Position numbers and translations under genes: made by a program. Under the pieces are notes generated by a model. The model saw only the letters and a list, made by a program, of their open reading frames with translations. It was not told the DNA's origin and did no database searches. From a phage, in the sequence record PZ583741.1: a stretch of 64,000 nucleotides of DNA; one strand, written 5' to 3'. Below, piece after piece: positions 36,441 through 61,699 of this stretch (position 1 is its first letter; each line of letters begins with the position of its first letter).

Positions 36441-36441
36441 A

Positions 36442-41770: not shown

Positions 41771-42187
41771 ATGGCTAAAAAGCTATTCAGTAAAGAAAAT
41801 CAACCACAAAATAAACGTGGGAAAGACAAGCGTAAGTTGCTCGTTGAAGCTCTTGAGAGAAAGGGGTTTAGTGAGGAAAAGCTCTATGACGCCATCGTTG
41901 AGATGGCGATGATTGAGCGTGATACTGCAATGATGAAAGAGCTTATCGTTCGATTCAGTCCGTTACCTAAGCCTGTCGCCCCTGTTTTTGAAGTTGATTT
42001 CCCTGATGACGGAACTCCGGTAGAGAAGATTGATGCTGTTATTCGTGGCATAGCTGCTGGTGTTATACCTGTGGACATTGGAAAGACATTTGCGGAGGTT
42101 ATCAGGACTGGGCTTGATATTGCTGAAGTTACCGAACTCGCCGCGCGCCTTGAGCGACTGGAGAAATTACTGGCGCAGCAACAGTAA
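41771..42187 (+). CDS. putative terminase small subunit
   Basis: 138 aa, immediately upstream of large terminase; coiled-coil C-terminus. Confidence 0.45.
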   Translation: MAKKLFSKENQPQNKRGKDKRKLLVEALERKGFSEEKLYDAIVEMAMIERDTAMMKELIVRFSPLPKPVAPVFEVDFPDDGTPVEKIDAVIRGIAAGVIPVDIGKTFAEVIRTGLDIAEVTELAARLERLEKLLAQQQ

Positions 42188-45718: not shown

Positions 45719-46194
45719 TGATTGATTGGGTATCTTTATTTGATTATGATGGAGCGTCTTTGGTGTGGAAGCATGGAAGGGGAGGTGTTTCCGTTGGCAG
45801 CATTGCGGGAACGGTTAATGCTGGCGGGTACATTCAGCTCAAAGTTAACGGAAGATTTTATTATGCCCACAGAATTATATGGGAAATGCATAACGGTCCT
45901 ATACCGGAAGGTATGGAGATTGACCACATAAATCATAACAAGGCGGACAACAGGATTGAGAATTTGCGTCTTGTTCGACACAAAACTAACACTAAAAACG
46001 CGCCTAAATACAAAAATAACACCAGCGGCGTTACTGGTGTGAGTTGGTATAAGAGAGATAAAAAATGGCTAGCACAAATAATGGTTGATGGCAATTACAT
46101 ACGTCTTGGTCTTTTTGATAATTTCGAAGCAGCAGTCGACGTGAGAAAGGAAGCAGAACTAAGGTATGGATTTCACAAGAACCACGGCGCTTGA
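45718..46194 (+). CDS. HNH homing endonuclease with AP2 domain
   Basis: HRIIWEMHNGPIPEGMEIDHINH...DNRIENLRLV; C-terminal GFHKNHG. Confidence 0.85.
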   Translation: MIDWVSLFDYDGASLVWKHGRGGVSVGSIAGTVNAGGYIQLKVNGRFYYAHRIIWEMHNGPIPEGMEIDHINHNKADNRIENLRLVRHKTNTKNAPKYKNNTSGVTGVSWYKRDKKWLAQIMVDGNYIRLGLFDNFEAAVDVRKEAELRYGFHKNHGA

Positions 46195-46222: not shown

Positions 46223-47461
<1,239 letters not shown>

Positions 47462-47516
47462 GTTATCTTACAAGGCATCTCGTGGGGTGCCTCAGTAAGA
47501 CAACCGGAGATAGAGC

Positions 47517-47702
47517 ATGAAAACCAAAATGATTCACAAGTCAGAAGTAAAAATTGGCGACACGGTAATTCACTGCGGTGAGATGAAGACGGTTGGCATG
47601 GAAACATTTGGCAAGGATGAGTTTATGGGACTCCTACTGTGGGGTGATAGCTATCGCTGCGGCTACAAGATGGTTGAGGTTGTAACTGAGGTTAAGTTTT
47701 GA
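47517..47702 (+). CDS. hypothetical early protein
   Basis: 61 aa, GGAGA RBS. Confidence 0.5.
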   Translation: MKTKMIHKSEVKIGDTVIHCGEMKTVGMETFGKDEFMGLLLWGDSYRCGYKMVEVVTEVKF

Positions 47703-47746
47703 ATAGCACGAATTGCTAAACCTTCCGCAAGGCCGTTTGATATAGT
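47703..47746 (+). promoter_or_regulatory. B-module promoter cassette 1: ATAGCACGAATTGCTAAA - N20 - TATAGT
   Basis: palindrome TAGCA-N5-TGCTA; -10 hexamer 38 bp after motif start. Confidence 0.5.
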
Positions 47747-47966
47747 GGTCTTGTTGAAGCAAAACAATCAATCATGGGGTTACACAAATGCAAGTTTATA
47801 AATCACCTGGCGGCGCTCGTTACGTTGTTGTTGATGGCATGGTGTACTGCAAGCCGCTAACCGGATTCACATTTCGCTCGTCAATGACGGTGGATCGATA
47901 CCTTTAGTTGATAGGTTGGGGATTTCTTAGGTTTGAAAAGGTAATCAAGCCTATAATGACCGTCAA

Positions 47967-48010
47967 ATAGCACGAATTGTTAAAATGGGATTCATCCTGA
48001 ATGGTATGAT
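47967..48010 (+). promoter_or_regulatory. B-module promoter cassette 2 (variant TTGTTA; -10 TATGAT)
   Basis: same 38-bp spacing. Confidence 0.4.
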
Positions 48011-48162
48011 CCACACATCAACCACAAGAATGGAAGTTAAGTGACGATATACGAACATAAATTCAGCAGTATGGGTATTGATATGCTCCTGCACTATGTA
48101 GACGAAAAATACGCAAATCTCATGCTTAATACGCATGGCGGCACAATAACGAGGATTGAGAT

Positions 48163-48426
48163 ATGAGTAAGTACAACCGTGAGATTATCGGCCTGGATGG
48201 GGAAGTAACCACAGTGGATGTATATCGAGTCCTGGATGCATTCCAGGTAACAGACCAAGCTATACAGCACGCAATCAAGAAGATGCTGTGCACTGGACTT
48301 AGAGGGCATAAGGACTATCTTACTGACATTGAAGACTCCATTGAATCACTGCAAAAAGCCAAGGAACTTTACGATCAGCGCAAGAGTTACGAGCGGCGAT
48401 ACAATTTATCTTTTACAGATAAATAG
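48163..48426 (+). CDS. hypothetical early protein
   Basis: 87 aa, GAGGA RBS; stop TAG lies inside next motif. Confidence 0.5.
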   Translation: MSKYNREIIGLDGEVTTVDVYRVLDAFQVTDQAIQHAIKKMLCTGLRGHKDYLTDIEDSIESLQKAKELYDQRKSYERRYNLSFTDK

Positions 48427-48466
48427 CACGAATTGCTAAACCCGCTCAGAAGGGTTTTGTTATAGT
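48423..48466 (+). promoter_or_regulatory. B-module promoter cassette 3
   Basis: motif plus TGtTATAGT extended -10. Confidence 0.5.
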
Positions 48467-48495
48467 TAGTTCACACCAAACGAGAGGAAATAAAG

Positions 48496-48714
48496 ATGAT
48501 TACTATTAACCTGTCAGATAAACAAGCAGCAGAACTCAAGTCCATGCTTTCAATCTTTGAGAAGCCAAATGACCAGGTAATTGCCAAAGAGGTAGTGGCT
48601 CAGATTAACAACCAGCAATTCGACGTAAGTGACTTCGAGTCATCGCGCCAGTACGAGGCAATGAGTGTTAATGCTGCATACCTGACTAACTGGGATAATG
48701 CGACTAAGAAATGA
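48496..48714 (+). CDS. hypothetical early protein
   Basis: 72 aa, GAGAGGAAA RBS. Confidence 0.5.
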   Translation: MITINLSDKQAAELKSMLSIFEKPNDQVIAKEVVAQINNQQFDVSDFESSRQYEAMSVNAAYLTNWDNATKK

Positions 48715-48860
48715 TTTTATACATACATGAGTACTGGACGGGGAAGTTTAACACAGTTCGACATGTCCGTGTTTACGAAGATTATGTAAATGCATTCAAT
48801 CAGCAGAAGGTTCTTGGTGGCACCATCAAGGTTTGCGATGTTGTGGATGAGATTTACTAA
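48711..48860 (+). CDS. small hypothetical protein (49 aa)
   Basis: manual ORF, ATGA overlap. Confidence 0.35.
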   Translation: MILYIHEYWTGKFNTVRHVRVYEDYVNAFNQQKVLGGTIKVCDVVDEIY

Positions 48861-48904
48861 ATAGCACGAATTGCTAAAGCAGTCTTGGGGTAATTTGTTA
48901 TAGT
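48861..48904 (+). promoter_or_regulatory. B-module promoter cassette 4
   Basis: motif plus TGtTATAGT. Confidence 0.5.
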
Positions 48905-48934
48905 TACCACATCAAAACTAACGAGGTTATAAGA

Positions 48935-49039
48935 ATGAGTGAATTAATTAAAACTATCGCGGACTATCCATTTGCTTCGCTTTTTCTTGCTATTGCAATA
49001 TATGAAATTGTAAAGATTATTGTCAAATGTATTAAATAG
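48935..49039 (+). CDS. small membrane peptide (34 aa)
   Basis: manual ORF, GAGG RBS. Confidence 0.3.
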   Translation: MSELIKTIADYPFASLFLAIAIYEIVKIIVKCIK

Positions 49040-49079
49040 CACGAATTTCTAAAACATTATCGGGGTATCTTACTATAGT
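49036..49079 (+). promoter_or_regulatory. B-module promoter cassette 5 (variant TTTCTA)
   Basis: motif plus TATAGT at fixed spacing. Confidence 0.45.
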
Positions 49080-49109
49080 TACCCCATCAAAACGAAACAG
49101 GAAGCAGAA

Positions 49110-49289
49110 ATGAAATTTCAACAAGGCGAGCCAAAGCTACAAGTCAACCACTTCGATGGTTACGCAACATTCATCATAGCCCAGGCTTGCGGGATGCGAG
49201 ATGAACCTCACGTTCACACCATTCACTTAACAGAAGAACAGGCACGAGAACTGGCTTACGAAATTCTTGAGCAATTGAACCGAATTTAA
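49110..49289 (+). CDS. hypothetical protein (59 aa)
   Basis: GGAAG RBS. Confidence 0.4.
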   Translation: MKFQQGEPKLQVNHFDGYATFIIAQACGMRDEPHVHTIHLTEEQARELAYEILEQLNRI

Positions 49290-49338
49290 CGCGCATAAAA
49301 CGCATTCTAACGAACGATAATTTAAGTAAGGCGATTCT

Positions 49339-49497
49339 ATGATTAAGGTTGTTTTTATTGCTGATGATGGTGTTTATCCATTATTATCTAATGGTGATGT
49401 TATTTACGTGCAAGACATGGGTTGCGCATATATCTATACAGATGAGTTTGGTGACTCTTATTATATTGAGAAATGGGAAGTTGAGGAGATTGCATGA
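49339..49497 (+). CDS. small protein, paralog 1 (52 aa)
   Basis: MIKVVFIADDG...; similar to next ORF. Confidence 0.4.
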   Translation: MIKVVFIADDGVYPLLSNGDVIYVQDMGCAYIYTDEFGDSYYIEKWEVEEIA

Positions 49498-49655
49498 TTA
49501 AGCTTGTTTATGTGGGTGAGAGTGATTATGTGGCGCTCATTCAGAGTGGTGATGTGTTCTTCGCAGAGATGAGTGATGATGGTAGTTTCTACATCGTAAA
49601 GAACAAGAATGGCGAAGATATCTACCTTTCAAAAGATGAGGTCATCATTTACTAA
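49494..49655 (+). CDS. small protein, paralog 2 (53 aa)
   Basis: MIKLVYVGESD...; tandem duplicate. Confidence 0.4.
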   Translation: MIKLVYVGESDYVALIQSGDVFFAEMSDDGSFYIVKNKNGEDIYLSKDEVIIY

Positions 49656-49780
49656 TGGATAACTACGAATCACCAGTAGAGTGGTGTAAGCGAATGCAGG
49701 ACGAAGCTAAAACTGGTGAAGAGGCGATGGCTTACTACGAACTGGCGCAAATTTGGATGGAACGTGAGAAGAAAGAATGA
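49655..49780 (+). CDS. small hypothetical protein (41 aa)
   Basis: manual ORF with overlapping start/stop. Confidence 0.3.
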   Translation: MDNYESPVEWCKRMQDEAKTGEEAMAYYELAQIWMEREKKE

Positions 49781-49920
49781 GCTTCACTGAATACGTTATC
49801 GCATGCGAGAGACTGGTCTTTGACATGAAGACTTTTCACTGGTTCATCATCAAGGATTTAATTAAGCCTTACAAGCAAGGCGTTACGCCAGAGGCTTTTG
49901 TTAAGTCATTCTACAAATAG
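49777..49920 (+). CDS. small hypothetical protein (47 aa)
   Basis: manual ORF; stop TAG inside next motif. Confidence 0.35.
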   Translation: MSFTEYVIACERLVFDMKTFHWFIIKDLIKPYKQGVTPEAFVKSFYK

Positions 49921-49960
49921 CACGAATTGCTAAACGCAGTCGCCATGGATGGCATATAAT
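49917..49960 (+). promoter_or_regulatory. B-module promoter cassette 6 (-10 TATAAT)
   Basis: motif plus consensus -10 at fixed spacing. Confidence 0.5.
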
Positions 49961-49993
49961 TACCACATCAACACAACGAAGAGAGATATAATA

Positions 49994-50140
49994 ATGAAAA
50001 ATGTATTTGGCATCAGCTATGAAGAAGAGTTTGTTGATTGCCTTATTTACCTGAATGAGATCTACGGAGATGAGTTTGAATGTGATGGTGATTCACTTCA
50101 TGCAAAAATAGAACTTGAAACATTTGGGGAGGTTGTCTAA
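49994..50140 (+). CDS. hypothetical protein (48 aa)
   Basis: ATG at 49994 in ORF 49949..50140. Confidence 0.4.
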   Translation: MKNVFGISYEEEFVDCLIYLNEIYGDEFECDGDSLHAKIELETFGEVV

Positions 50141-50382
50141 TGATGTTTGGATTATCAGAAGCACACTTCAACGCAGTTAAACGCCAGGCAGCAAAGTTGA
50201 ACGAAGAGTACAGCAAGTTATCGCCAAAACAGCGCAAGGACGATAAGCAGGTTGCGGCATTGATTTCAAAGATGTGGGAGCCAGTTTTCACAATCATTAG
50301 TCGAGACCGCTTTGTTTGGACCAGTGGGTATCTTAAGGGTAGAGTAGGTCACGACGAGAATGGGAATAGTCTTTATGAGTAA
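50140..50382 (+). CDS. hypothetical protein
   Basis: 80 aa, GGGAGG RBS. Confidence 0.5.
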   Translation: MMFGLSEAHFNAVKRQAAKLNEEYSKLSPKQRKDDKQVAALISKMWEPVFTIISRDRFVWTSGYLKGRVGHDENGNSLYE

Positions 50383-50557
50383 TTGCAATAAGCATAGGTA
50401 TAAGTACGCTTTCAGTTCAAAACTTACAGCCCACGACATAAAACTACTTAATCTAGGTTACTTCAAATCCAGCAAAAATGAAAATCATGTCGGGGATTAT
50501 AGATCATTTTATGAGTGCGTTAATTGCGGCGAGATGATTGCGATGGGGGTATTATGA
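50360..50557 (+). CDS. hypothetical protein (zinc-finger-like)
   Basis: 65-aa ORF; start uncertain (50360 or 50375). Confidence 0.35.
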   Translation: MGIVFMSNCNKHRYKYAFSSKLTAHDIKLLNLGYFKSSKNENHVGDYRSFYECVNCGEMIAMGVL

Positions 50558-50640
50558 GTGAGTTAACAATCTGGTTTATCGCAGGTCTGATTACTTGGGC
50601 TTACTTTTTAATCGTTTAGATTGAGCTTGTTAAAAAGAGC

Positions 50641-50669
50641 TTGCATCACTGACAGGAATTATCTAATAT
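50641..50669 (+). promoter_or_regulatory. sigma70-like promoter (TTGCAT - 17 bp - TAATAT) upstream of tRNA
   Basis: hexamers and spacing read from sequence. Confidence 0.4.
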
Positions 50670-50838
50670 TAACCACGTAGACAAACGAGGCCACCAGGTG
50701 GCAACGGCGCACGGAGCGCACTACACGGCAAGTCCGTAGCTCATTAAGTAGCGTATGCGGCATTAAGACCTAGCGCAAATAGGCAGATTAATCGGCTGTA
50801 TCAGGCAGCCCCGGAGCCGTAACCGGGACTCATTCAAA

Positions 50839-50916
50839 GCTCTGCTAGCTCAATTGGACAGAAGCAACGACCTTCTAAGTCGCAGGTTACTGGTTCGAAT
50901 CCAGTGCGGAGCGCCA
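50839..50916 (+). tRNA. tRNA-Arg (anticodon UCU), CCA encoded
   Basis: 7-bp acceptor stem, GG in D-loop, anticodon loop CUUCUAA, T-loop TTCGAAT, 3' GCCA. Confidence 0.75.
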
Positions 50917-50931
50917 ATAAAGGAGTTCATT

Positions 50932-51114
50932 ATGTGGGATGTGAAGTTGTCAATTCGCTTAATGGGCCGCTCGTGCAAGAATTGCACTCAAGAATACATC
51001 GCGTCAGTTGCCGCAATCAGCGCTGAGGATGCGGTAGCGAAAGTAAAGGAGATGTCAGGCGCTGACCCTGACACCCACAAATTCCTGGTAGCTTACGTTC
51101 GTGAGCAAAAGTAA
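50932..51114 (+). CDS. hypothetical protein (60 aa)
   Basis: AAGGAG RBS; track ORF 50854 overlaps the tRNA so start moved. Confidence 0.45.
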   Translation: MWDVKLSIRLMGRSCKNCTQEYIASVAAISAEDAVAKVKEMSGADPDTHKFLVAYVREQK

Positions 51115-51154
51115 AAAGTGTTATACCCTCGTTAAGTTTCGTTTCTCTCGTTGT

Positions 51155-51184
51155 TTTTAGCCCTCGCTTGAGGGCTTTTTTTCG
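51155..51184 (+). terminator. rho-independent terminator
   Basis: hairpin agccctcgcttgagggct plus T6. Confidence 0.6.
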
Positions 51185-51225
51185 TCTGCAATATGCTATA
51201 ATCTGGAATCAACAAAGGAGGATTT

Positions 51226-51732
51226 ATGAGCAAAGCAGCATTAAAGATGGGTGAGGGAAATTTCAAGGCGCTCTACAACAAGAAGTATGGCGACATTGCT
51301 ATGGTGGCAATCAACCGCAAGTACACGCCTGAGGAAGTTTTCGATTTCGCCGTTAGATACTTCTCCTGGGCTGAGAGCGAGGCAATTAAGGCTATTGAGA
51401 CGGCTGCTTTCCAGGGTGTGGTTAGCGAGAGCCTCGTACACAAGCCTAGAGTATTCACCTTAACTGGGCTGGCGCTCTTTATGGGTGTCAATATCAATAG
51501 ATTCGCTCGCTGGCGTACTGAGGCTGGATACTCTGATGTGATGGAATTCATTGATAACGTTATTTACGAGCAGAAGTACCAGCTTGGTGTCGCAGGCATC
51601 ATCAACTCTACCATCGTTGGTAAAGAGCTAGGAATTGATAAGCCGCAGGAGATTAAGATTAGCAACAACTCCACAGCTAACGATGTTGACAGTATGAAGG
51701 AAGCACTTGAGTCCGTGATCAGTAAGCTATAG
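51226..51732 (+). CDS. terminase small subunit
   Basis: 168 aa, HTH-like TLTGLALFMGVNINRFARW; AAGGAGG RBS; upstream of large terminase. Confidence 0.6.
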   Translation: MSKAALKMGEGNFKALYNKKYGDIAMVAINRKYTPEEVFDFAVRYFSWAESEAIKAIETAAFQGVVSESLVHKPRVFTLTGLALFMGVNINRFARWRTEAGYSDVMEFIDNVIYEQKYQLGVAGIINSTIVGKELGIDKPQEIKISNNSTANDVDSMKEALESVISKL

Positions 51733-51800
51733 CACTTATTGTTAAAAGAATGGGCCCAATCAATGAGATAATTGGGTCACTAACTTAACGAGGTGATGAT

Positions 51801-52313
51801 ATGAATTGGCATGATTATTTTGAATACAAAGATGGGAAGATTTACTGGAAAGATTACGATAGCGAGAAGCTTGGAAGGAGAAGGATACAGCGAAGATTCA
51901 TAGGGAAAGAGGTTGGCGGCATTGATAAAAGCCTAGGGTATGTTAGGGTAAACATGCCTGGTAAAAAATATTGGGTTCATAGAATAATCTGGGAAATGCA
52001 TAACGGAGCAATACCAGAAGGTATGCAAATTGACCATATAAATCATGTTAGAAATGATAACAGGATAGAAAACATTAGGTTAGTTACAATTCAGGAAAAT
52101 AGAAAGAATCAGTCAATAAATTCTAGGAATAAGACCGGGGTTACCGGAGTCTGCATAGTATCTAGGACTGGCAAGTATGTAGCTCAAATAAAAAAGGATG
52201 GAGAGAATATTCACTTGGGATTCTTTGATAATATTCACGACGCATCGATTGTCAGGGCGAGGGCTGAATTTATTCTTGGGTATCATAAAAACCACGGGAG
52301 GAAAGATGAGTGA
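51801..52313 (+). CDS. HNH homing endonuclease with AP2 domain, between terminase subunits
   Basis: HRIIWEMHNGAIPEGMQIDHINH...DNRIENIRLV; C-terminal GYHKNHG. Confidence 0.85.
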   Translation: MNWHDYFEYKDGKIYWKDYDSEKLGRRRIQRRFIGKEVGGIDKSLGYVRVNMPGKKYWVHRIIWEMHNGAIPEGMQIDHINHVRNDNRIENIRLVTIQENRKNQSINSRNKTGVTGVCIVSRTGKYVAQIKKDGENIHLGFFDNIHDASIVRARAEFILGYHKNHGRKDE

Positions 52314-53877
52314 TTTGATAGTTTGGGATGAGTTAAATCATGCGCAGAAGATGGCTATCAAGGCCATCTCTGAGCATAGTTTCGAGGGGTTCTTGCGGTG
52401 TTTCTTCCAGATAACTCAGGGCGAGAGATTCAAAATGAATTGGCATGCGAAGTACCTTTGCCGCGTCATTGATGAGATTCTTGAGGGTAAGAGAAAGGAT
52501 ACCATCATAAACGTATCTCCGGGATCTGCCAAAACCGAACTGTTTAGCATCCACTTCCCTGTATATAGCATGATTAAGATTAAGAAGGTTAGGAATCTTA
52601 GTTTGTCGTTCTCTGACTCATTGGTTAAGCGCAACTCCAAGCGCGTAAGGGATTTGATAAAATCAAAGGAGTTCCAGGAGCTTTGGCCCTGCACCTTTGG
52701 AACGTGCAGGGATGACGAGATTCAGGTTCTTGATGAGAATGGCAAAGTTAGGTTTGAGTCTATATCTAAGGCGATGGCTGGTCAGGTGACAGGAAGCAGG
52801 GGCGGCTACATGACTGACGATTATAGTGGTTGCATAATGCTGGATGACCCACTAAAGCCTGATGACGCGTTAAGTAATGTAAGAAGAGAGGCTGTCAATA
52901 TGCTTCTCAAGAACACAATCCGTTCACGTCGAGCTAGCTCAGTAAAGGGAAAAGAAACGCCAATACTTTCCGTGCAGCAAAGACTTCATGTTCTGGACAC
53001 TAGCCACTTCATGGAGTCAGGGCAAATGGGCATAAAGTTCGACGTAGTGAAAGTTCCAGCCATAGTCACAGAGGATTACGCCGACACGCTTCCTGATTGG
53101 ATCAAACAACAATTTATTGATGATGTTCTTTCATCACCATTTGTAGAGCGGGATGGAGTTAAGTATTACAGCTACTTTCCGGCAAAGGAGTCAATAGAAG
53201 ACCTGATGGCTATGTGGGATGCTGACCCGTACACGTTCCTTAGTCAGTACCAGCAGGAACCTGTAGCTCTGGGCGGCAATCTTATTAATGTGGATTGGTT
53301 CCAGCGCCTTAGTGATACATTCATACCTCCAGCCAAGTATGATTATCGATTCATCACATGCGATACCGCGATGACCACTAAAAGTTACAGCGACTTCTCT
53401 GTTCTTCAGTTGTGGGGCTATAAAGATGCTAAGATTTACCTTATTGATCAGCGCAGGGGTAAATGGGAGGCCCCAGAGTTGGAGGCTGAACTTCTGGACT
53501 TTGAGAAGAAATCAAGGGCAACCAGTCAGTCAGATGGTATCCTCAGAAAGATTATTATCGAGAAGAAAGCGTCTGGTATCGGCCTGATTCAATCAGCTGG
53601 CAGGGTTATGCGAACACCGATAGAGCCATACGTACCGGATAATGACAAGCTAACCAGGGTGATGAGTGCACTACCACAGATTAAGGCTGGTAACGTAGTT
53701 CTTCCAGAGTCATCGCCGTGGCTAAACGGATTGCTCACTGAGGTTGCGGCTTTTACGGCAGATGACTCGCATAAGCACGACGACCAAATTGACTGTCTAA
53801 CAATGGCGGTAAACCTTGTACTTAACATCGCTGATGATCCTAAGGCGAGACTGATGCGCATAGCGGGAATGAAATAG
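52306..53877 (+). CDS. terminase large subunit
   Basis: Walker A-like VSPGSAKTE; C-terminal nuclease Asp residues; overlaps HNH stop by 8 nt. Confidence 0.8.
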   Translation: MSDLIVWDELNHAQKMAIKAISEHSFEGFLRCFFQITQGERFKMNWHAKYLCRVIDEILEGKRKDTIINVSPGSAKTELFSIHFPVYSMIKIKKVRNLSLSFSDSLVKRNSKRVRDLIKSKEFQELWPCTFGTCRDDEIQVLDENGKVRFESISKAMAGQVTGSRGGYMTDDYSGCIMLDDPLKPDDALSNVRREAVNMLLKNTIRSRRASSVKGKETPILSVQQRLHVLDTSHFMESGQMGIKFDVVKVPAIVTEDYADTLPDWIKQQFIDDVLSSPFVERDGVKYYSYFPAKESIEDLMAMWDADPYTFLSQYQQEPVALGGNLINVDWFQRLSDTFIPPAKYDYRFITCDTAMTTKSYSDFSVLQLWGYKDAKIYLIDQRRGKWEAPELEAELLDFEKKSRATSQSDGILRKIIIEKKASGIGLIQSAGRVMRTPIEPYVPDNDKLTRVMSALPQIKAGNVVLPESSPWLNGLLTEVAAFTADDSHKHDDQIDCLTMAVNLVLNIADDPKARLMRIAGMK

Positions 53878-53917
53878 CACAAATTGCTAAACACTAAAGC
53901 CACGGATGGCGTATAGT
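53874..53917 (+). promoter_or_regulatory. B-module promoter cassette 7 (variant ATAGCACAAATTGCTAAA)
   Basis: terminase stop TAG is inside motif; TATAGT at fixed spacing. Confidence 0.45.
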
Positions 53918-53946
53918 TACTTCACACAAAAGAGAGGAGAAGAAAG

Positions 53947-54279
53947 ATGAAGGCAGTATTTAAAGGTTATAAAAAAGCTGGTCGTTTGGAATTTACTATT
54001 GGTAAGATTTATGAGTTATCAGAAACACGCGGAGTGGGTGGATATATGGTGGTGACTGATGACGGTGGCTTTCGGGCAATATTTATCCCAGACAACATCT
54101 ATGATTTCGAGGTGTTGATCCCAGATGAATTTATCGGTAAAGAAAAGCAATTCAAATATTACATCAATGGCGAAGCTGTTTCTAAAGTCAAGTTCGATGA
54201 TACACTGTTATGCGTCAAGGAATTTAAATCTGATGGCATTGATACATCATCAATCAAGTTCGAAGTAAAATTCGAGTAA
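53947..54279 (+). CDS. hypothetical protein
   Basis: 110 aa, GAGAGGAG RBS, own promoter and terminator. Confidence 0.5.
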   Translation: MKAVFKGYKKAGRLEFTIGKIYELSETRGVGGYMVVTDDGGFRAIFIPDNIYDFEVLIPDEFIGKEKQFKYYINGEAVSKVKFDDTLLCVKEFKSDGIDTSSIKFEVKFE

Positions 54280-54298
54280 CCACAAAAGCTATGATAAA

Positions 54299-54325
54299 CT
54301 AGCCCCTAAATGGGGCTTTTTTATT
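54299..54325 (+). terminator. rho-independent terminator
   Basis: hairpin agcccctaaatggggct plus T6. Confidence 0.6.
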
Positions 54326-54335
54326 GGAGAAAAAC

Positions 54336-55562
54336 ATGGTCAAGACAGACAGCTACGCCAATATCTTTCTAGGCGGCAGTGATGGTAGTGAGATTTACGG
54401 GAGCTTGCAGAACCAAGCGCCTACAATTCTGGCTTCGCTTTATGCGGATAATGCACTGGTGCGTCGAATTATCGACACAATCCCGGAGACGGCATTAGCG
54501 GCAGGATTCCACATTGACGGCATTGATGACGAGCCTGCATTCTGGTCTCGCTGGGACTATCTGGAGTTGACAAGGCACATCAACGAAGCGTGGTCGTGGG
54601 CTAGATTGTTCGGTGGAGCGGCAATTGTCGCTATCGTTAAGGACAACAGAGCTCTAACAAGCCCAGTCAGAGAAGGTTCTGAGCTTGAAACTGTTCGCGT
54701 ATACGACCGCACACAAGTAAAAGTCCAAACTCGAGAGGAGAATCCGCGCAACGCACGTTTTGGTAATCCACTAACCTATCGCATCACCACTAATGAGAGC
54801 GATATGTTTTACGATGTGCATTACAGCCGCATTCATATCATCGACGGAGAGCGAATCCCTAACGTAATGCGTCGGCAAAATGATGGCTGGGGCCGCAGCG
54901 TTCTCTCCAGTGATATTCTTGACTCAATCAAGGATTACACCAACTGCGAACGACTAGCGACTCAACTGCTCAAGCGTAAACAGCAAGCGGTCTGGAAAGT
55001 CAAGGACCTGGCATTGCTTTGTGATGATAGTGAAGGAGTTGGCGCGGCTCGTTTACGTCTCGCTCAAGTTGATAACAACAGCGGAGTTGGTCAGGCAATT
55101 GGCATTGATGCGGAATCGGAAGAATACAGCATTCTGAACTCTGATATTGGTGGGATTGATGCGTTCCTGGATAAGAAGTTCGACAGAATCGTTGCTCTGA
55201 GCGGCATCCATGAAATAATCCTGAAGAACAAGAACGTCGGCGGCTTATCATCAAGCCAGAATACAGCGCTTGAGACATTCCATAAGCTAGTCGATCGAAA
55301 GCGTAACGCTGAACTGCTGCCGATTCTCGGGTTCCTGATTCCGTTCATTTCAGACGAGCAAGAATGGTCAGTGGAGTTTAATCCTCTGGCTCAGGAATCA
55401 AGTAAAGATAAAGCGGAGACCCTTGAGAAGAACGTAAACAGTATAGCAACACTAATTGCAGCTGGCGCTATGGATACTAGCGAAGCGCGTGATACACTAC
55501 GAACTATCGCGCCAGAGATTAAGATTGGCGATGGCAATATCGAACCTAAAGAACCAGTCTAG
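54336..55562 (+). CDS. putative portal protein
   Basis: 408 aa; between large terminase and scaffold. Confidence 0.5.
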   Translation: MVKTDSYANIFLGGSDGSEIYGSLQNQAPTILASLYADNALVRRIIDTIPETALAAGFHIDGIDDEPAFWSRWDYLELTRHINEAWSWARLFGGAAIVAIVKDNRALTSPVREGSELETVRVYDRTQVKVQTREENPRNARFGNPLTYRITTNESDMFYDVHYSRIHIIDGERIPNVMRRQNDGWGRSVLSSDILDSIKDYTNCERLATQLLKRKQQAVWKVKDLALLCDDSEGVGAARLRLAQVDNNSGVGQAIGIDAESEEYSILNSDIGGIDAFLDKKFDRIVALSGIHEIILKNKNVGGLSSSQNTALETFHKLVDRKRNAELLPILGFLIPFISDEQEWSVEFNPLAQESSKDKAETLEKNVNSIATLIAAGAMDTSEARDTLRTIAPEIKIGDGNIEPKEPV

Positions 55563-55631
55563 GAAGCAATGGCGACGACAGAGGAACCTAATGAATGATG
55601 AATTTGATGGCTTTTAGTGAGGAGAATTGGG

Positions 55632-56717
55632 ATGTCTAAAGCCCGCTATGACAGTGTAAAGTTTAAAGCAACAATCGACGAGAATGGATTCTTAGTTGAC
55701 ACTCCGGTAGTCGCTCGTCTCGGCGTGCAAGTCTACTACATGGAAGATGGTCGAACGGTTCGAGAGTTTCGCCCGGCAGAGGAGGTTTTCAATGATGAAT
55801 CTCTGGCAAGCTACCAGGGTAAGCCAATGACTCTTGATCATGTTTTCGTTAACTCAGAGAACGCTAAAGAGGTAGTAGTCGGCTCAGTTGCTGGAAAGGC
55901 AGAGCCATTAGGCAGCTCCGTGGTTGCTCCAATTGTTATTTACGATAATGCCGCCATTCAGGAAGCTATGTCAGGTAACGCAAAGGAGTTATCCGTTGGA
56001 TACTCATCAGTCATTGATTACACCCCAGGTTGGGGTGACCCTGTTACTGGTGAGTACTTCCTTAAGTCTGAAAGTGAGCTATTCGACGTACCAGAAGGAT
56101 GGCAGGAGTTCGACGCAATTCAGCGTGACATTAAAGTGAACCATCTCGCAATGGTATATCGCGGTCGCGCAGGTATTGCCAAATTGAATATGGACGGTGA
56201 GCAGGAAAACCCGTATACTACTGACGTTGATATCAATAAAGAGGATAAACAGGAAATGATTAAGATTAAACTAGACGGCGCGCAGGAATTCGAAGTCGCC
56301 CCAGAAATCGCTTCTCACATCGAAGCGCTGAACGCAAAGGCTGACACTGCAATCGCAGAGCGCGACTCGCTGAAAGCTAAGGTAGATGCAATTCCAGCTG
56401 AAATCGAGAAAGCAGTAGCTAAAGCTAAAGCTGATGCCGATGCCCTAGCCGCTCTGGTTGCTGTTGCTGCTGAAGCTGGTGTTAAGGCTGACGGCCTGGA
56501 TGCTAAAGGCATTAAAGTTGCTTACGTTAAAGAAGTCTCCAGTCTTGATGTTTCCGAGAAGTCTGACGCTTACATCGACGCAGCGTTCGACATTGCCAAA
56601 GAATCTGATAAAATGGCTGAAGTACGTAAAGCGACTACCGCTTCCGACAAATCTGACAGCGCCGAAGAGCCTAAGAAATTAGACCCGCGTGCTCGTTTAG
56701 CTAAAATTAAGAAATAA
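55632..56717 (+). CDS. putative scaffolding protein / prohead protease
   Basis: GAGGAG RBS; Ala/Lys/Glu-rich coiled-coil C-terminus. Confidence 0.55.
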   Translation: MSKARYDSVKFKATIDENGFLVDTPVVARLGVQVYYMEDGRTVREFRPAEEVFNDESLASYQGKPMTLDHVFVNSENAKEVVVGSVAGKAEPLGSSVVAPIVIYDNAAIQEAMSGNAKELSVGYSSVIDYTPGWGDPVTGEYFLKSESELFDVPEGWQEFDAIQRDIKVNHLAMVYRGRAGIAKLNMDGEQENPYTTDVDINKEDKQEMIKIKLDGAQEFEVAPEIASHIEALNAKADTAIAERDSLKAKVDAIPAEIEKAVAKAKADADALAALVAVAAEAGVKADGLDAKGIKVAYVKEVSSLDVSEKSDAYIDAAFDIAKESDKMAEVRKATTASDKSDSAEEPKKLDPRARLAKIKK

Positions 56718-56729
56718 GGAGTTATAAAC

Positions 56730-57239
56730 ATGGCAATTCGTTCCGTAGCACTGGCTGGTATGGTTTCTGATACCTCTCTGTATAACATCGACGGCGCTTG
56801 CGTAGTTGGCGGCAGCGATGCAATTCCGGTTGGTACTGTTGTTGGTGTAACAGCCGCTCAGCCTATAGATGGTCACAAAGTTGTTGGCCTTCCAGCTGTA
56901 ACTGGCACGGCAGTTAAACCTTATGGTGTTGTTGTTAAATCTCATTACGAGACTCCAGATGGCACAGCTCGCGTAAATGAAGCAGTTAACGTAATGACTC
57001 ATGGTCGCATCTGGGTTCGCACCACTTTAGCAGCCGCGCCAGTTTTTGGTAGCAAGGTTTTCGTAAACGCAAGTGGTGTAGTTGTTGCTGAAGCGGCTAC
57101 TACTACTTGGGAAACTGGTTTTACATTTGCTGGCGGTTACATCGCAAACACTGGCACAGACCCACAAAACCTGAGCGTTGATGGTGCCCTAGTTGAGGTT
57201 CAGCTTATCCAATCCACGGACTCAACCGTTGCAGCATAA
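56730..57239 (+). CDS. putative head decoration protein
   Basis: 169 aa between scaffold and major capsid genes. Confidence 0.45.
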   Translation: MAIRSVALAGMVSDTSLYNIDGACVVGGSDAIPVGTVVGVTAAQPIDGHKVVGLPAVTGTAVKPYGVVVKSHYETPDGTARVNEAVNVMTHGRIWVRTTLAAAPVFGSKVFVNASGVVVAEAATTTWETGFTFAGGYIANTGTDPQNLSVDGALVEVQLIQSTDSTVAA

Positions 57240-57253
57240 TAGTTAAGACTAAA

Positions 57254-57280
57254 CTAACCCGCTTCGGCGGGTTTTTTATT
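57254..57280 (+). terminator. rho-independent terminator (UUCG loop)
   Basis: aacccgcttcggcgggtt plus T6. Confidence 0.6.
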
Positions 57281-57362
57281 GCCTATCATCTCATCATTGC
57301 GTGGTCTAAAAACTCGTGTATAATGAACACGTAGACACCTAACTGAAAAGGAACAATAAAGA

Positions 57363-58304
57363 ATGGCCATTAAATTTGATGCAGAACAAGCAAAAATCAC
57401 CGCTCATCTCGAGCAAATGGGCGTAGACAAAGCTGATGCCGCTGGTATCTGGACCGTTAAGCAACTGACCGCCAATCTGGCACGTGCTTACGAAAAAGAA
57501 TATCCAGACAACTCCGTTGTTAATATCTTCCCTGTAACCAATGAAATCCCAGGTCATGCGAAATATTTCGAATATCCAGAATTTGACGGCGTTGGCATTG
57601 CTCAGATTATCGCTGATTACTCTGACGACTTGCCGCTGGTTGATGCGTTTATGACAGAGAAACAAGGTAAAGTGTTCCGCTTCGGTAACGCGTTCCTGAT
57701 CTCTACTGATGAAATCAAAGCTGGCGCTGCTACTGGTCAATCGCTGTCATCTCGTAAGCAGGCGTTGGCATTCGAAGCGCACGATAACCTGTTGGATAAA
57801 CTGGTATGGTCCGGCTCTACACCGCACGGCATTCCTAGCGTATTCGACCATCCGAACATCAACAACGTTGTTGCTGGTACGTGGAACTCCGCAGCTGCCG
57901 CCATGACTGATATTACCGCACTTATTGATGCAATCGAGACTTCGACTAATGGCACTCACACCGCAACTGATATTCTGCTGCCTGCTTCCGCTCGCCGCTT
58001 GATGCAAGAGCTGGTTCCTAACACCTCTATCAGTTACGCGCAGCTGTTCGCCACCAACAACTCGGGTATCAATCTGCGTTACCTTCAGTTCCTGGATAAC
58101 TACGATGGCGCAGGCGGCAAAGCTGCTCTGGCTTTTGAGAAGGATGCATTAAATATGTCTATCGAGATCCCGGAGGCCACTAACGTACTTCCTGGTCAAA
58201 TGAAGGATTTACATATCAAGTACCCCGTAACCTCTAAGGCTACAGGTTTGATTTTATATCGTCCTCTGACGATGGCGGTAATGAAAGGCATTACCTACGA
58301 GTAA
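57363..58304 (+). CDS. major capsid protein
   Basis: 313 aa; own promoter and strong terminator. Confidence 0.65.
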   Translation: MAIKFDAEQAKITAHLEQMGVDKADAAGIWTVKQLTANLARAYEKEYPDNSVVNIFPVTNEIPGHAKYFEYPEFDGVGIAQIIADYSDDLPLVDAFMTEKQGKVFRFGNAFLISTDEIKAGAATGQSLSSRKQALAFEAHDNLLDKLVWSGSTPHGIPSVFDHPNINNVVAGTWNSAAAAMTDITALIDAIETSTNGTHTATDILLPASARRLMQELVPNTSISYAQLFATNNSGINLRYLQFLDNYDGAGGKAALAFEKDALNMSIEIPEATNVLPGQMKDLHIKYPVTSKATGLILYRPLTMAVMKGITYE

Positions 58305-58307
58305 TAA

Positions 58308-58333
58308 ATGGCCCTCTTCGGAGGGCTTTTTTA
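58308..58333 (+). terminator. rho-independent terminator (UUCG loop)
   Basis: gccctcttcggagggc plus T6. Confidence 0.6.
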
Positions 58334-58396
58334 CGTCTGTACCAAATGGAATTGTTGGGTTATAATCACTCAATCAGATAAACAAAGGAGACAAAA

Positions 58397-58642
58397 ATGA
58401 TTCGTTTAGAACACACTGGCGCTTGCCTTATCGTTTACAGTGGCGAGAAATATCTACCTGGTGACACTTTCGAGGTTGATGTAATTTGCGACGGACTAAA
58501 GCGTTTAATCGCAGAGGGCAAACTCACCATTGATGGTGATGCCAAAGCAACCAAACAGATTGCGCAGGAAGTTGTTAGCAAGAAAAAGCGCAAGGAACCG
58601 AAAACCATCTCCGAAGCTGAGACTGGCAACGAGTACAAATAA
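58397..58642 (+). CDS. hypothetical structural protein
   Basis: 81 aa, AAGGAG RBS. Confidence 0.45.
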   Translation: MIRLEHTGACLIVYSGEKYLPGDTFEVDVICDGLKRLIAEGKLTIDGDAKATKQIAQEVVSKKKRKEPKTISEAETGNEYK

Positions 58643-58683
58643 CAAACAGGGGGCTTAGGCCTCCTTTATTGTATGGAGCTAAT

Positions 58684-59085
58684 ATGAATGATGCAATTTT
58701 GGCGTTTATGCGCTCACTCGTTCCTGCGCTCAAGGCAGTGGATGACGAATCAATTAATGTATGGATTGATTTGGCACGTCTATACGTATGCGAAAGCAAG
58801 TTTGGCGCAGACAAAGATAAGGCAGTAGGACTTTACGCATTACACTTGATGCTTGCTGATGGCGCATTTAAGGGTGAGAATGAAGGATTGGAAACATACA
58901 GCCGTAGAATGGCAAGTTATGCACTGAGCGGTGAATTCTCTATCACCTACGATAACCAATCAGCAATCCAGGGTGATTTATCATCTTCCTCCTGGGGTCG
59001 TATGTACAAAGCACTGCTCCGCAAGAAAGGTGGCGGCTTTGGATTGATTACTTCCGCTGGTGGCGGTGGGTGCGGTTGCCGATGA
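58684..59085 (+). CDS. putative head-tail connector
   Basis: gene order. Confidence 0.4.
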   Translation: MNDAILAFMRSLVPALKAVDDESINVWIDLARLYVCESKFGADKDKAVGLYALHLMLADGAFKGENEGLETYSRRMASYALSGEFSITYDNQSAIQGDLSSSSWGRMYKALLRKKGGGFGLITSAGGGGCGCR

Positions 59086-59453
59086 ACTACAGCGAAATCG
59101 AATCAATCACTCGCTCTGGAATTAACTTCTTTAGTGATGCTAATGGTGTTTACGAGATGAGCACTGGCGCTGGATATGTTGAAATCGTTAACGGAGTTGA
59201 AGTAGAAGTGCCAGCGCAAACATTCCAGCTAAAAGGCTTAGTGCGAGAAATCAAGACGCGCGATATTGATGGTGAGTTTATCCAGTTTGGCGATAAGCGC
59301 GGAATCTTCACGGCTCAGGTGGAAATTAAGCAGGGTTATCAGATTAAAGTTGATGGTGAGACTTTTGTTGTCGTTGACCCGCGCCCAGTTAAACCGACTG
59401 GCACAGTTGTTGGGTATAGACCGATTCTTCGTAGGGTGGCTACTTATGGCTAG
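59082..59453 (+). CDS. putative head-tail joining protein
   Basis: ATGA overlap with upstream gene. Confidence 0.4.
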   Translation: MNYSEIESITRSGINFFSDANGVYEMSTGAGYVEIVNGVEVEVPAQTFQLKGLVREIKTRDIDGEFIQFGDKRGIFTAQVEIKQGYQIKVDGETFVVVDPRPVKPTGTVVGYRPILRRVATYG

Positions 59454-59883
59454 AAATATTGGAAGCGTTGCTACGTTTGAGAAATCTATTGCTGACTGGA
59501 TTGACAGAGCAGATAATGGATTTGAAATTGTAGTAGCTAATACAGTTACCAAGACAGCTAATGCAATTGTTGACCTTTCTCCTGTCGACACTGGTAGGTT
59601 CAAAGCTAACTGGCAAATCACCGCAAACTCACCAGCTCAGCAATCACTGAATGAGTACGATCAGACTGGTGGGCAGACAAAAACATATCTCGCCAGACAG
59701 GCTAGAGCTGTCGCCAACTCAAAAGCTACGAGTGTTATTTATATAACCAACCGACTTGATTACGCTGCTGGGCTTGAGTATGGGGCATCAAATCAGGCTC
59801 CAGCTGGCGTTTTGGGTGTTGTGCAAGCAAGGTTGGGCAGGTACTTCCAGGAAGCGGTAGAGGAGGCTCGTCGTGCAATATGA
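59446..59883 (+). CDS. putative HK97 gp10-like head-tail connector
   Basis: SPVDTGRFKANW motif. Confidence 0.45.
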   Translation: MARNIGSVATFEKSIADWIDRADNGFEIVVANTVTKTANAIVDLSPVDTGRFKANWQITANSPAQQSLNEYDQTGGQTKTYLARQARAVANSKATSVIYITNRLDYAAGLEYGASNQAPAGVLGVVQARLGRYFQEAVEEARRAI

Positions 59884-60274: not shown

Positions 60275-60289
60275 CAAAAGGAAAAATAC

Positions 60290-60946: not shown

Positions 60947-60949
60947 AGC

Positions 60950-60977
60950 ATAAACCCTCTTCGGAGGGTTTTTTATT
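60950..60977 (+). terminator. rho-independent terminator (UUCG loop)
   Basis: aaccctcttcggagggtt plus T5. Confidence 0.6.
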
Positions 60978-61029
60978 GCTACCAACCTGCTATAATGCAA
61001 TCTCACAAACAATAAGAGGATTAACTAAG

Positions 61030-61688: not shown

Positions 61689-61699
61689 TGGAGGCTTAG

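Follow-up and report, generated by a model that had tools for sequence, protein, structure and literature searches.

A 21-nt direct repeat, aaATAGCACnnnTTGnTAAAA, was described in 21 copies in phage TLS in a 2024 paper, which also noted it for T1, Rtp and Rogue1. This repeat runs in the direction of transcription, lies between genes about 76 nt before the start codon, and was left with an open function for which a stoperator, an enhancer site and an UP element were offered as options. As published, it comes without mention of the marbox or of a fixed 18-bp link to a -10 element, and our search of the literature found no paper linking the T1-like repeat to the marbox. The marbox has been defined as gcannwwntgnnaaa (PMC12052159) and as CACG-N7-AAA (PMC8811837), and the ChIP-derived consensus for MarA is gcactaattgctaaa (PMC5684230). 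At published class II marbox promoters the box is centred at about -41 and the match to a -35 element never exceeds three of six positions.

The window analyzed here, the whole 64-kb stretch of sequence record PZ583741.1, consists of two joined contigs. Since bases 1-127 are identical to 47277-47403, positions 1-47403 (module A) represent the contig of a separate circular phage, akin to phage HC6 and Bas77-81, while positions 47404-64000 are part of an Rtp/T1-like (Drexlerviridae) phage. Scanning the window with ATAGCACGAATTGCTAAA gave seven sites with at most one mismatch. These are the seven positions of the original prediction, but only four of them, 47703, 48423, 48861 and 49917, are exact copies; those at 47967, 49036 and 53874 carry one mismatch each. 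An eighth, degenerate copy with three mismatches is added at 51729, directly 3′ of the small terminase gene. All eight copies are on the + strand; 0.1 copies are expected by chance and none of 100 shuffles reached eight. The earlier statement that module A holds no copies is true but trivial, because module A belongs to another phage. The window cassettes agree with the TLS direct repeat in consensus, in direction and in distance to the start codon. The element is the published T1/TLS/Rtp repeat and not a new one, to which the window adds members from an Rtp-like phage. What is new is its likeness to the E. coli marbox, of which the box is, judged by its sequence, a near-perfect example.

The phage box has no mismatch at the specified positions of either published marbox definition, and seven of the eight window boxes fit the 15-bp definition without any mismatch. 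It is identical to gcactaattgctaaa at 14 of 15 positions, and the variant GCACTAATTGCTAAA found in relatives at all 15. The 33 E. coli MarA ChIP-seq sites in Table 1 of PMC5684230 were the sole source of a scoring matrix with a maximum of 19.8 bits. On it, all but one of the eight window boxes reach 18.3-18.7 bits, which would rank them 4th-6th among genuine MarA sites; the probability of such a score for a random 15-mer is 7e-8. Position by position, conservation in the phage boxes follows that in the MarA sites (Spearman 0.73, p = 0.002); the reversed phage profile gives a correlation of 0.36, which is not significant. From 13 Drexlerviridae genomes or loci, a family set of 162 unique boxes with high scores was compiled. 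A 20-bp marbox consensus, AYnGCACnnWnnRYYAAAYn, was reportedly given by Martin et al. in 1999. Flanking positions 1 and 2, which were not used for the selection of boxes, fit its AYnGCAC beginning, with A at position 1 in 145 and a pyrimidine at position 2 in 154 of the 162 family boxes. The sole departure is position 19, which is not the pyrimidine of the 20-bp consensus and counts against the marbox reading. The original prediction had suggested a comparison with host activator consensus sequences, and it is the MarA/SoxS/Rob marbox that the box matches.

The box has a 20-bp asymmetric consensus, ATAGCAC-nnW-TTGYTAAA-nn, and is followed by an 18-bp spacer of free sequence. In each of the eight window copies a -10-like hexamer (TATAGT in five cassettes; TATGAT, TATAAT and GATAAT in one each) begins exactly 38 bp from the start of the motif, which upholds the rigid spacing first noticed for seven. 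Family-wide, the best -10-like hexamer lies at box position 39 in 113/162 and at position 40 in 10/162 (123/162 together). A conserved C-A (C50/A51) six to seven bases 3′ of the -10 is likely to be the transcription start site. If transcription starts at A51, the 20-bp box would be centred at -40.5 and the palindrome at -42, as had been predicted for a class II activator site, and the box would span about -50 to -31, in place of a -35 element. At spacings of 16-18 bp, TTGACA is matched at best at 2-3/6 positions in seven window cassettes and at 4/6 in one, leaving no usable -35, and a canonical sigma-70 scan of the cassette region found no excess of promoters. The predicted leader of 22-27 nt contains a ribosome-binding site, and where a start codon is near, as in seven of the cassettes, it lies 72-77 nt from the start of the box.

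A box centre near -41, as predicted for the phage cassettes, is common to them and the class II MarA-SoxS-Rob(-RamA) promoters of E. coli and Salmonella, as is the lack of a recognizable -35 (no better than 3/6 in seven of the eight cassettes). At micF of E. coli K-12 (box 134-153 of L207, TAGAAT 172-177, +1 at 185) the box is likewise in forward orientation with an 18-bp gap to the -10, and its sequence, ACAGCACTGAATGTCAAAAC, matches the phage box ATAGCACGAATTGCTAAACC; at the class I mar promoter, unlike micF and the phage cassettes, the box is reversed. All eight window boxes are forward, with GCA...AAA reading towards the -10 and the gene; so are almost all of the 18 sites initially located in G8, and this orientation is fixed in all copies but one per genome. 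The phage sites differ from host marboxes in number and quality: host marboxes are scattered and mostly degenerate, whereas about 20 near-consensus copies serve most transcription units of a virulent phage genome of 45-50 kb. Unlike at host class II marbox promoters, the upstream phage genes end inside the box.

In the following, each cassette is given from its box start to its predicted start site. Cassette 1 (47703-47753) consists of box ATAGCACGAATTGCTAAACC at 47703-47722 (18.7 bits), an 18-bp gap and TGa + TATAGT at 47741-47746, and is 91% identical to T1 3535-3603. Cassette 2 (47967-48017; ATAGCACGAATTGTTAAAAT, 18.5 bits; TGg + TATGAT at 48005-48010) is followed by a stretch of ~150 nt and then a truncated ORF of 87 aa, 48163-48426. 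This ORF stops at the TAG of cassette 3 (48423-48473; ATAGCACGAATTGCTAAACC, 18.7 bits; TGt + TATAGT at 48461-48466), whose gene starts at 48496. The box of cassette 4 (48861-48911; ATAGCACGAATTGCTAAAGC, 18.7 bits; TGt + TATAGT at 48899-48904; gene start 48935) lies immediately 3′ of the TAA ending ORF 48711-48860. A 34-aa ORF, 48935-49039, ends in the TAG of cassette 5 (49036-49086; ATAGCACGAATTTCTAAAAC, carrying G13T; TATAGT at 49074-49079; gene start 49110), which has the weakest of the eight boxes at 12.6 bits. Cassette 6 (49917-49967; ATAGCACGAATTGCTAAACG, 18.7 bits; TATAAT at 49955-49960; probable gene start 49994) provides the stop of the 47-aa ORF 49777-49920. Cassette 7 (51729-51779; ATAGCACTTATTGTTAAAAG, 18.3 bits; TGa + GATAAT at 51767-51772), the one absent from the earlier list, stands between the small terminase gene (51226-51732), which its TAG terminates, and the HNH endonuclease gene (start 51801) that it is placed to drive. 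At 53877, the large terminase gene terminates in the TAG of cassette 8 (53874-53924; ATAGCACAAATTGCTAAACA, 18.7 bits; TATAGT at 53912-53917), which precedes a virion structural protein gene (53947-54279) and is the only cassette also passing the canonical sigma-70 scan.

Genes can end inside the box because the box supplies TAG and TAA stops. The motif TAG ends the upstream ORF at 48423, 49036, 49917, 51729 and 53874; a TGA or TAA stop ends immediately 5′ of the motif at 47703 and 48861, and at 47967 the TAG is used only by a 20-codon TTG-start frame. The earlier count of five copies with the stop in the motif was thus roughly right, being solid in four of the seven original copies or five of all eight, and the sequence supports the description of the cassettes as compact, modular stop-box-promoter-RBS-gene units.

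The motif recurs in related genomes, with about 14-26 copies in each of the complete relatives Rtp, G8, T1 and TLS. Enrichment is confined to Drexlerviridae of enterobacterial hosts, where matches of at least 15 bits occur at 4.2-4.7 per 10 kb, versus 0.21 per 10 kb in module A; boxes are absent from the more distant terminase relatives examined. Besides early genes, cassettes in the complete relatives precede late ones, including tail and lysis-region genes. With cassette 8 placed to drive a virion protein gene, the cassettes do not appear to be the early device that they were first taken for.

On balance, we think that the cassettes are probably, though by no means surely, class II marbox promoters served by host MarA/SoxS/Rob. 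Each unit would be a class II marbox promoter used by sigma-70 RNA polymerase, its box read by a monomeric activator of the host MarA/SoxS/Rob family with two helix-turn-helix motifs, one helix reading GCAC and the other AAA about one helical turn on. The bound activator would contact RNA polymerase and compensate for the missing -35, as at micF, and transcription could begin without any activator encoded by the phage. In unstressed cells, the constitutive Rob would be the likeliest factor. No AraC-family homologue of MarA/SoxS/Rob was detected in the window, G8, T1, TLS or Rtp (tblastn E > 1; best E of 0.13 in a profile search). If this reading is true, the roughly 20 promoters of the phage are tied to host regulators of the responses to antibiotic, oxidative and bile stress, and this virulent phage may express its genes by way of a stress regulator of the host. 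Several points count against the marbox reading. Unstressed cells contain little MarA and SoxS, and Rob has been described as largely sequestered. In addition, LPS genes, tolC, secB and ppiB were the only genes reported by a Keio single-gene knockout screen with the T1-like phage LL5 (>90% identical to TLS), and rob, marA and soxS were not among them (PMC7229145); therefore no single one of these three is essential for plating. Redundancy among them, together with extended -10 motifs, could hide the effect of a knockout.

The main rival, which we regard as possible but rather unlikely, is that the box is the operator of a phage helix-turn-helix regulator, the P22-Cro-like Rtp52/T1 gp23 family. 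A dimer of this regulator on TAGCA-N5-TGCTA at about -42 would activate all cassettes in class II fashion, and the marbox match would be due to convergence or mimicry; the 2006 Rtp genome paper is said to have proposed a phage regulator as the reader of the box. All Drexlerviridae genomes examined have conserved this regulator, which carries a Cro-type helix-turn-helix motif, and the half-sites lie 10 bp apart, centre to centre. A helix-turn-helix dimer would likewise fit such 5-bp arms at a spacing of one helical turn, which counts against the marbox reading. So does the promoter of the Rtp regulator itself, TTGTCT-17-TACAAT, a canonical -35/-10 pair that stands face to face with the box-bearing helicase promoter and fits an 'immediate-early activator' scheme; the leader of this gene crosses a reversed box, a geometry suited to autoregulation. 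T1, G8 and Rtp moreover share a conserved, operator-like reversed box lacking a -10, just 3′ of an extended -10 before the tail-fibre gene.

The base-contacting part of the regulator's recognition helix, however, differs between genera in at least four variants (TPQAVEEW, TRQAVEEW, SNQTVQGW and NLKTVWGW), whereas all loci share one box consensus. Outside the 5-bp arms, the conserved positions lack symmetry (A1, C7/T11, A17, A18); G4 never varies, while position 14, its counterpart in the dyad, can be C or T; and the orientation is fixed relative to the -10. A phage regulator also leaves unexplained that the box is an optimal host marbox in sequence, orientation and spacing. Furthermore, cassettes precede small genes at both genome ends which, if they are expressed first as we assume, would be transcribed before any phage protein is present. 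A symmetric dimeric operator of the CRP/FNR type was rejected since only five pairs are complementary (A1/A17, A0/A18 and C7/T11 are not) and the orientation is fixed. The symmetric dimer on a palindrome of the original prediction is for these reasons not the best fit; the whole pattern, partial dyad included, appears best fitted by an asymmetric marbox read by monomeric MarA/SoxS/Rob.

It is improbable, in our judgment, that no activator is involved and that the cassettes are extended -10 promoters used by sigma-70 polymerase alone, with the box as an UP-like element or a surrogate -35. Five of the eight window cassettes have a TGn extended -10 (TG at -15/-14), 114 of the 162 family boxes have G37, a box-less cTGcTATAAT promoter occupies 60978-61000 of the window where G8 has a cassette, and the LL5 knockout screen yielded no host activator. 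Yet G4, C5 and G13 are invariant and C7 is found in 143/162, which rules out an UP element, an A/T-rich tract at -40 to -60 without invariant G/C. As a surrogate -35, TTGCTA is too far from the -10 at 22 bp. Because an element of 18-20 bp is strongly conserved across genera with ~50% protein identity, a sequence-specific reader is needed. The T4 MotA box is TGCTT centred at -30, 11-13 bp from the -10; with TTGCTA ending 22 bp before it, a MotA-dependent middle promoter was ruled out.

That the box is a negative or non-promoter element, whether a stoperator-like roadblock for a phage repressor, part of a terminator or mainly a recombination linker, is highly improbable: boxes do occupy intergenic positions and follow the direction of transcription, some spacers hold terminator hairpins and relatives diverge at cassettes, but a roadblock or linker would need no rigid link to a good -10 exactly 18 bp downstream, as found in ~70% of the 162, and TAGCA-CGAAT-TGCTA + AAA would not be a terminator because it is too weak and lacks a U tract. 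The stoperators of mycobacteriophages L5 and Bxb1 resemble the boxes in being numerous, intergenic, asymmetric and of one orientation, and in often abutting stop codons; they are repressor sites that lie within transcription units and are not tied to promoter elements. A mycobacteriophage-type stoperator was ruled out by the locking of the box to the -10 at 18 bp and by the virulent nature of these phages, with no repressor annotated in the examined records.

In T4-type phages, PeSL elements are short conserved promoter cassettes that flank many small early genes and sit at gene-shuffling junctions; T4 early sigma-70 promoters have a -35, and the PeSL stem-loop precedes the promoter. These promoter-early stem-loop cassettes were reportedly described by Arbiol et al. 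in 2010. The phage cassettes are similar in that conserved promoter cassettes flank many small early genes and coincide with gene-shuffling junctions, and they differ in promoter type and in a stem-loop that brackets the -10. Upstream of the terminase genes, where the small genes lie, DNA-level similarity to T1 is limited to the cassettes, and homology breakpoints between relatives coincide with them. Homology to G8 and Rtp stops at cassette 6, and at the box of cassette 7 homology to G8, from which the HNH insert is absent, breaks off. Conserved cassettes would act as junctions for the exchange of gene modules between related phages.

There is room in the free spacer for a terminator or another hairpin. 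A terminator-like hairpin at 48438-48457 occupies the gap between box and -10 in cassette 3; positions 27-32 pair with 45-50 in cassette 1 (5/6 bases), and GGGGTA...TACCCC flanks the -10 of cassette 5 on both sides with 6/6 pairs. A compensatory inverted repeat is present in ~30% of cassettes.

The repeat observed in the window is real and is a family-wide feature. We refer to the 20-bp motif as the box, and to the box with its 18-bp spacer, -10 hexamer (positions 39–44, counted from the box start) and inferred start site (A51) as the cassette. The 18-mer ATAGCACGAATTGCTAAA is found exactly on the plus strand at 47703, 48423, 48861 and 49917, with one mismatch at 47967, 49036 and 53874 and with three at 51729, that is, eight sites where 0.1 would be expected by chance. 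Seven copies had been claimed in the original prediction, and these sites are genuine, but only four are exact and the copy at 51729 had been missed. The rigid spacing described there extends to all eight copies, with a -10-like hexamer (TATAGT in five; TATGAT, TATAAT and GATAAT once each) beginning exactly 38 bp past the motif start. A TGn extended -10 is present in five of the eight cassettes, and in seven a ribosome-binding site and start codon follow 22–27 nt past the inferred start site. The upstream ORF ends with the TAG inside the motif in the copies at 48423, 49036, 49917, 53874 (large terminase) and 51729 (small terminase); the earlier count of five such stops is roughly right, with four among the seven copies first noted and a fifth at the missed one. 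At 47703 and 48861 an upstream TGA or TAA ends right before the motif.

The window consists of two contigs joined end to end, with the junction at 47403/47404. Self-comparison revealed that bases 1–127 are identical to 47277–47403, and because of this exact 127-nt terminal overlap 1–47403 can be read as a 47,276-bp phage genome assembled as a circle. This phage is related to the E. coli phages HC6 and Bas77-81. The sequence from 47404 onward is a fragment of an Rtp-like T1-family (Drexlerviridae) phage with 95% identity to vB_Ec-G8 (hereafter G8) and 89% to Rtp, in mosaic pieces. The motif is indeed absent from 1–47403 as first noticed, but since this part is a separate phage contig, its absence is trivial and merely means a different phage without the motif.

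Among complete relatives the motif occurs genome-wide and on both strands, with 14 sites in Rtp and 18 in G8 (≤3 mismatches), about 20 in T1 and 22 in TLS (≥14 bits). The G8 sites are co-oriented with the downstream gene with one exception and stand before tail and replication genes and before small genes at the genome ends. Of the window cassettes, the last serves a gene for a virion structural protein, and one other serves an HNH endonuclease gene. Because cassettes lie upstream of all of these gene classes, the cassette is a general promoter of the T1 phage family and not the early-gene device it had been taken for.

The repeat element was already known, and the window contributes further copies. 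According to its abstract, the 2006 Rtp genome paper reportedly proposed that the putative regulator Rtp52 acts at ten conserved inverted repeats. In the searchable literature we found no link of the marbox (the binding site of the E. coli activators MarA, SoxS and Rob), AraC, MarA, SoxS or Rob to T1-like phages. The 2024 re-annotation of TLS described 21 copies of a direct repeat of 21 nt, aaATAGCACnnnTTGnTAAAA, with similar repeats noted for T1, Rtp and Rogue1. It identified no more than three conventional sigma-70 promoters and left the function of the repeat undecided between a stoperator, an enhancer-binding site and an UP element (PMC11447400). What is new here is that the repeat has the sequence, orientation and spacing of an optimal host marbox promoter.

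Comparison with host activator site consensus sequences, as suggested in the original prediction, gave a match to the MarA/SoxS/Rob marbox, and judged by sequence the box is such a site position by position. The window core GCACGAATTGCTAAA has zero mismatches to the definition gcannwwntgnnaaa, called non-palindromic and oriented (PMC12052159), and to CACG-N7-AAA, which the two MarA recognition helices read (PMC8811837). It agrees at 14 of 15 positions with the MarA ChIP-seq consensus gcactaattgctaaa (PMC5684230), the odd position being free in the degenerate definition, and the variant GCACTAATTGCTAAA of G8, Rtp and T1 agrees at all 15. On a weight matrix built solely from 33 MarA ChIP-seq sites (Table 1 of PMC5684230), seven of the eight window boxes score 18.3–18.7 of 19.8 possible bits, which would rank 4th–6th among genuine E. 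coli MarA sites; the probability that a random 15-mer reaches at least 18.3 bits is 7e-8. Matches of at least 15 bits number 4.2–4.7 per 10 kb in T1-like sequences versus 0.21 in the 1–47403 contig.

A family alignment was also made of 162 unique boxes, drawn from 13 Drexlerviridae genomes or loci. Its conservation profile correlates with that of the MarA sites (Spearman 0.73, p = 0.002, equal-weight site selection), and reversing the phage profile lowers this to a non-significant 0.36. A longer 20-bp marbox consensus, beginning AYnGCAC, is said to have been given by Martin et al. in 1999; position 1 is A in 145 of the boxes and position 2 a pyrimidine in 154, both in agreement with it and neither used in box selection, and position 19 departs from it. 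The palindrome first noticed is real and is the partial dyad GCA...TGC contained in the consensus marbox itself. Conserved positions beyond the dyad (A1, C7/T11, A17, A18) are asymmetric, and G4 is invariant with C or T at its dyad partner, position 14.

In the same 162 boxes TG is conserved at 36–37, T-A-T-A-A/G-T at 39–44, and C50-A51 as the expected pyrimidine-purine of a start site; 113 boxes have their best -10 starting at position 39, and a further 10 have it one base later, at position 40. With A51 as the start site, the box would span -50 to -31 with its centre at -40.5. The position assigned earlier to a class II activator dimer is therefore right, but a dimer binding a palindrome is probably wrong, as the box is asymmetric. 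In published genome-wide data, forward-oriented marbox sites lie near -41. At micF of E. coli K-12, the archetypal class II marbox promoter, the box ACAGCACTGAATGTCAAAAC is followed by exactly 18 bp and then TAGAAT, a spacing like that of the phage, and the 15-bp core lies at -48 from the annotated RNA start compared with -47 from the inferred phage start. In the class I mar promoter, by contrast, the box is reversed and upstream of the -35 as expected, whereas in the phage cassettes it is forward. The best -35 match is 2–3 of 6 in seven window cassettes and 4 of 6 in one; a canonical -35/-10 sigma-70 scan returned 16 promoters with 16.6 expected from shuffled sequence, no enrichment, and only one cassette passed it. 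All sequence-level features of a class II marbox promoter are present. A -35 role for TTGCTA within the box was ruled out, as the spacer would be 22 bp, as was an RNA hairpin or terminator formed by the palindrome (stem of 5 bp, then AAA); an Rfam search of 47404–55000 returned nothing besides tRNA.

We lean towards the reading that the cassettes are class II marbox promoters read by host MarA, SoxS or Rob. One of these would bind the box as a monomer and, once bound, would recruit sigma-70 RNA polymerase to a promoter without a -35, as at micF; in unstressed cells constitutive Rob would be the most likely factor. No AraC/XylS-type protein was detected in the window, G8, T1, TLS, Rtp or related loci, where tblastn with MarA gave only E > 1 and a MarA+SoxS+Rob profile against all six-frame ORFs gave a best E of 0.13. 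A Keio screen with LL5, a TLS-like phage, speaks against a strict dependence on these activators, as the genes it reported were limited to LPS genes, tolC, secB and ppiB (PMC7229145); no single one of the three is therefore essential for plating. Any effect could be masked in that screen by redundancy among the three and by how often an extended -10 is present.

The family also encodes a conserved regulator (Rtp52/T1 gp23) with a P22 Cro-type helix-turn-helix, located outside the window, and its binding to the box is the main alternative, although we consider it unlikely. In Rtp (35281–35383) the regulator gene is served by a canonical promoter of its own, TTGTCT-17-TACAAT, which faces the box-bearing promoter of the helicase gene, and the regulator leader crosses the reversed box, which may be a switch or autoregulatory arrangement; T1 (36431–36525) has a minus-strand TATAAT at the matching place. 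Likewise, one reversed box per genome is conserved in the gap between the primase and tail-fibre genes (G8 11725–11742, T1 34902–34919, Rtp 33762–33779) and lacks a -10 at the 18-bp distance. In T1 and G8 an extended -10 lies just upstream on the gene strand, so that the box would fall at about +1 to +20, a geometry of repression type. Both arrangements count against a strict dependence on the host activators and would fit binding of the box by the regulator as well. Against binding by the regulator, the base-contacting part of its recognition helix varies by genus (TPQAVEEW, TRQAVEEW, SNQTVQGW, NLKTVWGW), whereas the box consensus is unchanged across all loci, and cassettes stand before small genes at both genome ends, which we assume to be expressed first, before any phage protein exists. 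These observations favor a conserved host reader. Regulator homologues were found only in Drexlerviridae-sized contigs, all box-bearing, a phyletic pattern that does not tell the host factor from the phage regulator. Direct recognition of the box by polymerase seems to us improbable, and a negative or non-promoter role highly improbable.

T1-like phages, classic laboratory contaminants, are also common in the gut and are candidates for phage therapy, and their transcription program has so far been unexplained. If the box is a marbox, the promoters of the family become readable at once as box, 18 bp and -10, and an unexplained repeat becomes a specific, cheaply testable hypothesis on T1-like transcription, a question some twenty years old. 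We suggest tentatively, and with slightly less confidence than we have in the host reader, that these virulent phages possess no promoter specificity themselves but have converted almost all of their promoters into optimal class II marboxes driven and tuned by MarA/SoxS/Rob, and that ~20 high-affinity boxes per replicating copy may soak up these regulators and blunt the host multidrug-resistance response. MarA, SoxS and Rob are stress regulators that respond to antibiotics, oxidants and bile salts. A marbox would also tie phage growth to the regulon that sets intrinsic antibiotic resistance, with a bearing on phage-antibiotic combinations and on phage behavior in the bile-rich gut. Should the marbox link fail, what remains is a set of additional copies of a repeat already known from phages.

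The 18-bp spacer has no fixed sequence and is put to other uses. Some spacers hold a terminator-like hairpin with the T tract overlapping the -10, as at window 48438–48457 and at the annotated T1 terminators 39998–40024 and 41980–42007. In 29 of 97 family cassettes, compared with 4.3 expected after shuffling, positions 27–32 pair with 50–45 around the -10 (6-bp arms, 12-nt loop), and the pairing is compensatory because arm sequences differ among cassettes. Window cassettes 47703, 48861 and 49036 carry this inverted repeat and 51729 carries it in another register. It is not a terminator, and if A51 is the start its 3′ arm would lie outside the RNA from its own promoter. Where the window is homologous to G8, Rtp or T1, the matching stretch often begins or ends at a cassette, and upstream of the terminase genes cassettes are the sole DNA-level matches to T1. 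Since homology starts and stops there, they look like junctions for gene-module exchange. Downstream of the major tail gene, where G8 carries a cassette, the window (60943–61000) shows a terminator and then a perfect extended -10 (cTGcTATAAT) with no box, so that a cassette and a plain extended -10 promoter seem able to replace each other at one and the same site.

Two T1 cassettes (15067–15086 and 18831–18850) are directed against late genes. With its extended -10, the 18850 copy reads directly into the bidirectional terminator that follows the major tail gene, and would give a very short antisense RNA. Class I geometry was rejected for these reverse boxes (15086, 18850), as no promoter fits downstream and a terminator or ribosome-binding site adjoins. 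In the window, terminators of GC stem and T tract (e.g., AACCCGCTTCGGCGGGTTTTTTATT) punctuate the late structural genes at 54291–54325, 57246–57280, 60943–60977 and 61653–61687. The minus strand at 49026–48997 carries the region's best match to a canonical sigma-70 promoter (TTGACA-18-TATATT, 11/12), antisense to the 34-aa ORF between the cassettes at 48861 and 49036. Within 47967–48426, the ~150 nt past the cassette at 47967 hold no convincing gene, and the 87-aa ORF at 48163–48426, which matches only the C-terminal third of a ~235-aa PHROG family annotated as ATPase, looks like a truncated gene. An HNH insert with its own cassette (51735–52347, ORF 51801–52313) lies between the small and large terminase genes, where G8 has no HNH gene and Rtp has one. 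The large-terminase ORF is listed as starting at 52198, within the HNH gene, and its homologues align only beyond about residue 37, which puts the true start probably near 52306. A 78-nt HNH segment (51969–52046) is 82% identical to 45859–45936 of the unrelated phage in the first contig. A tRNA-Arg gene (anticodon TCT, plus strand, 50839–50916) is situated in the small-gene region before the terminase genes, a place where relatives have tRNA-Arg or tRNA-Ile.
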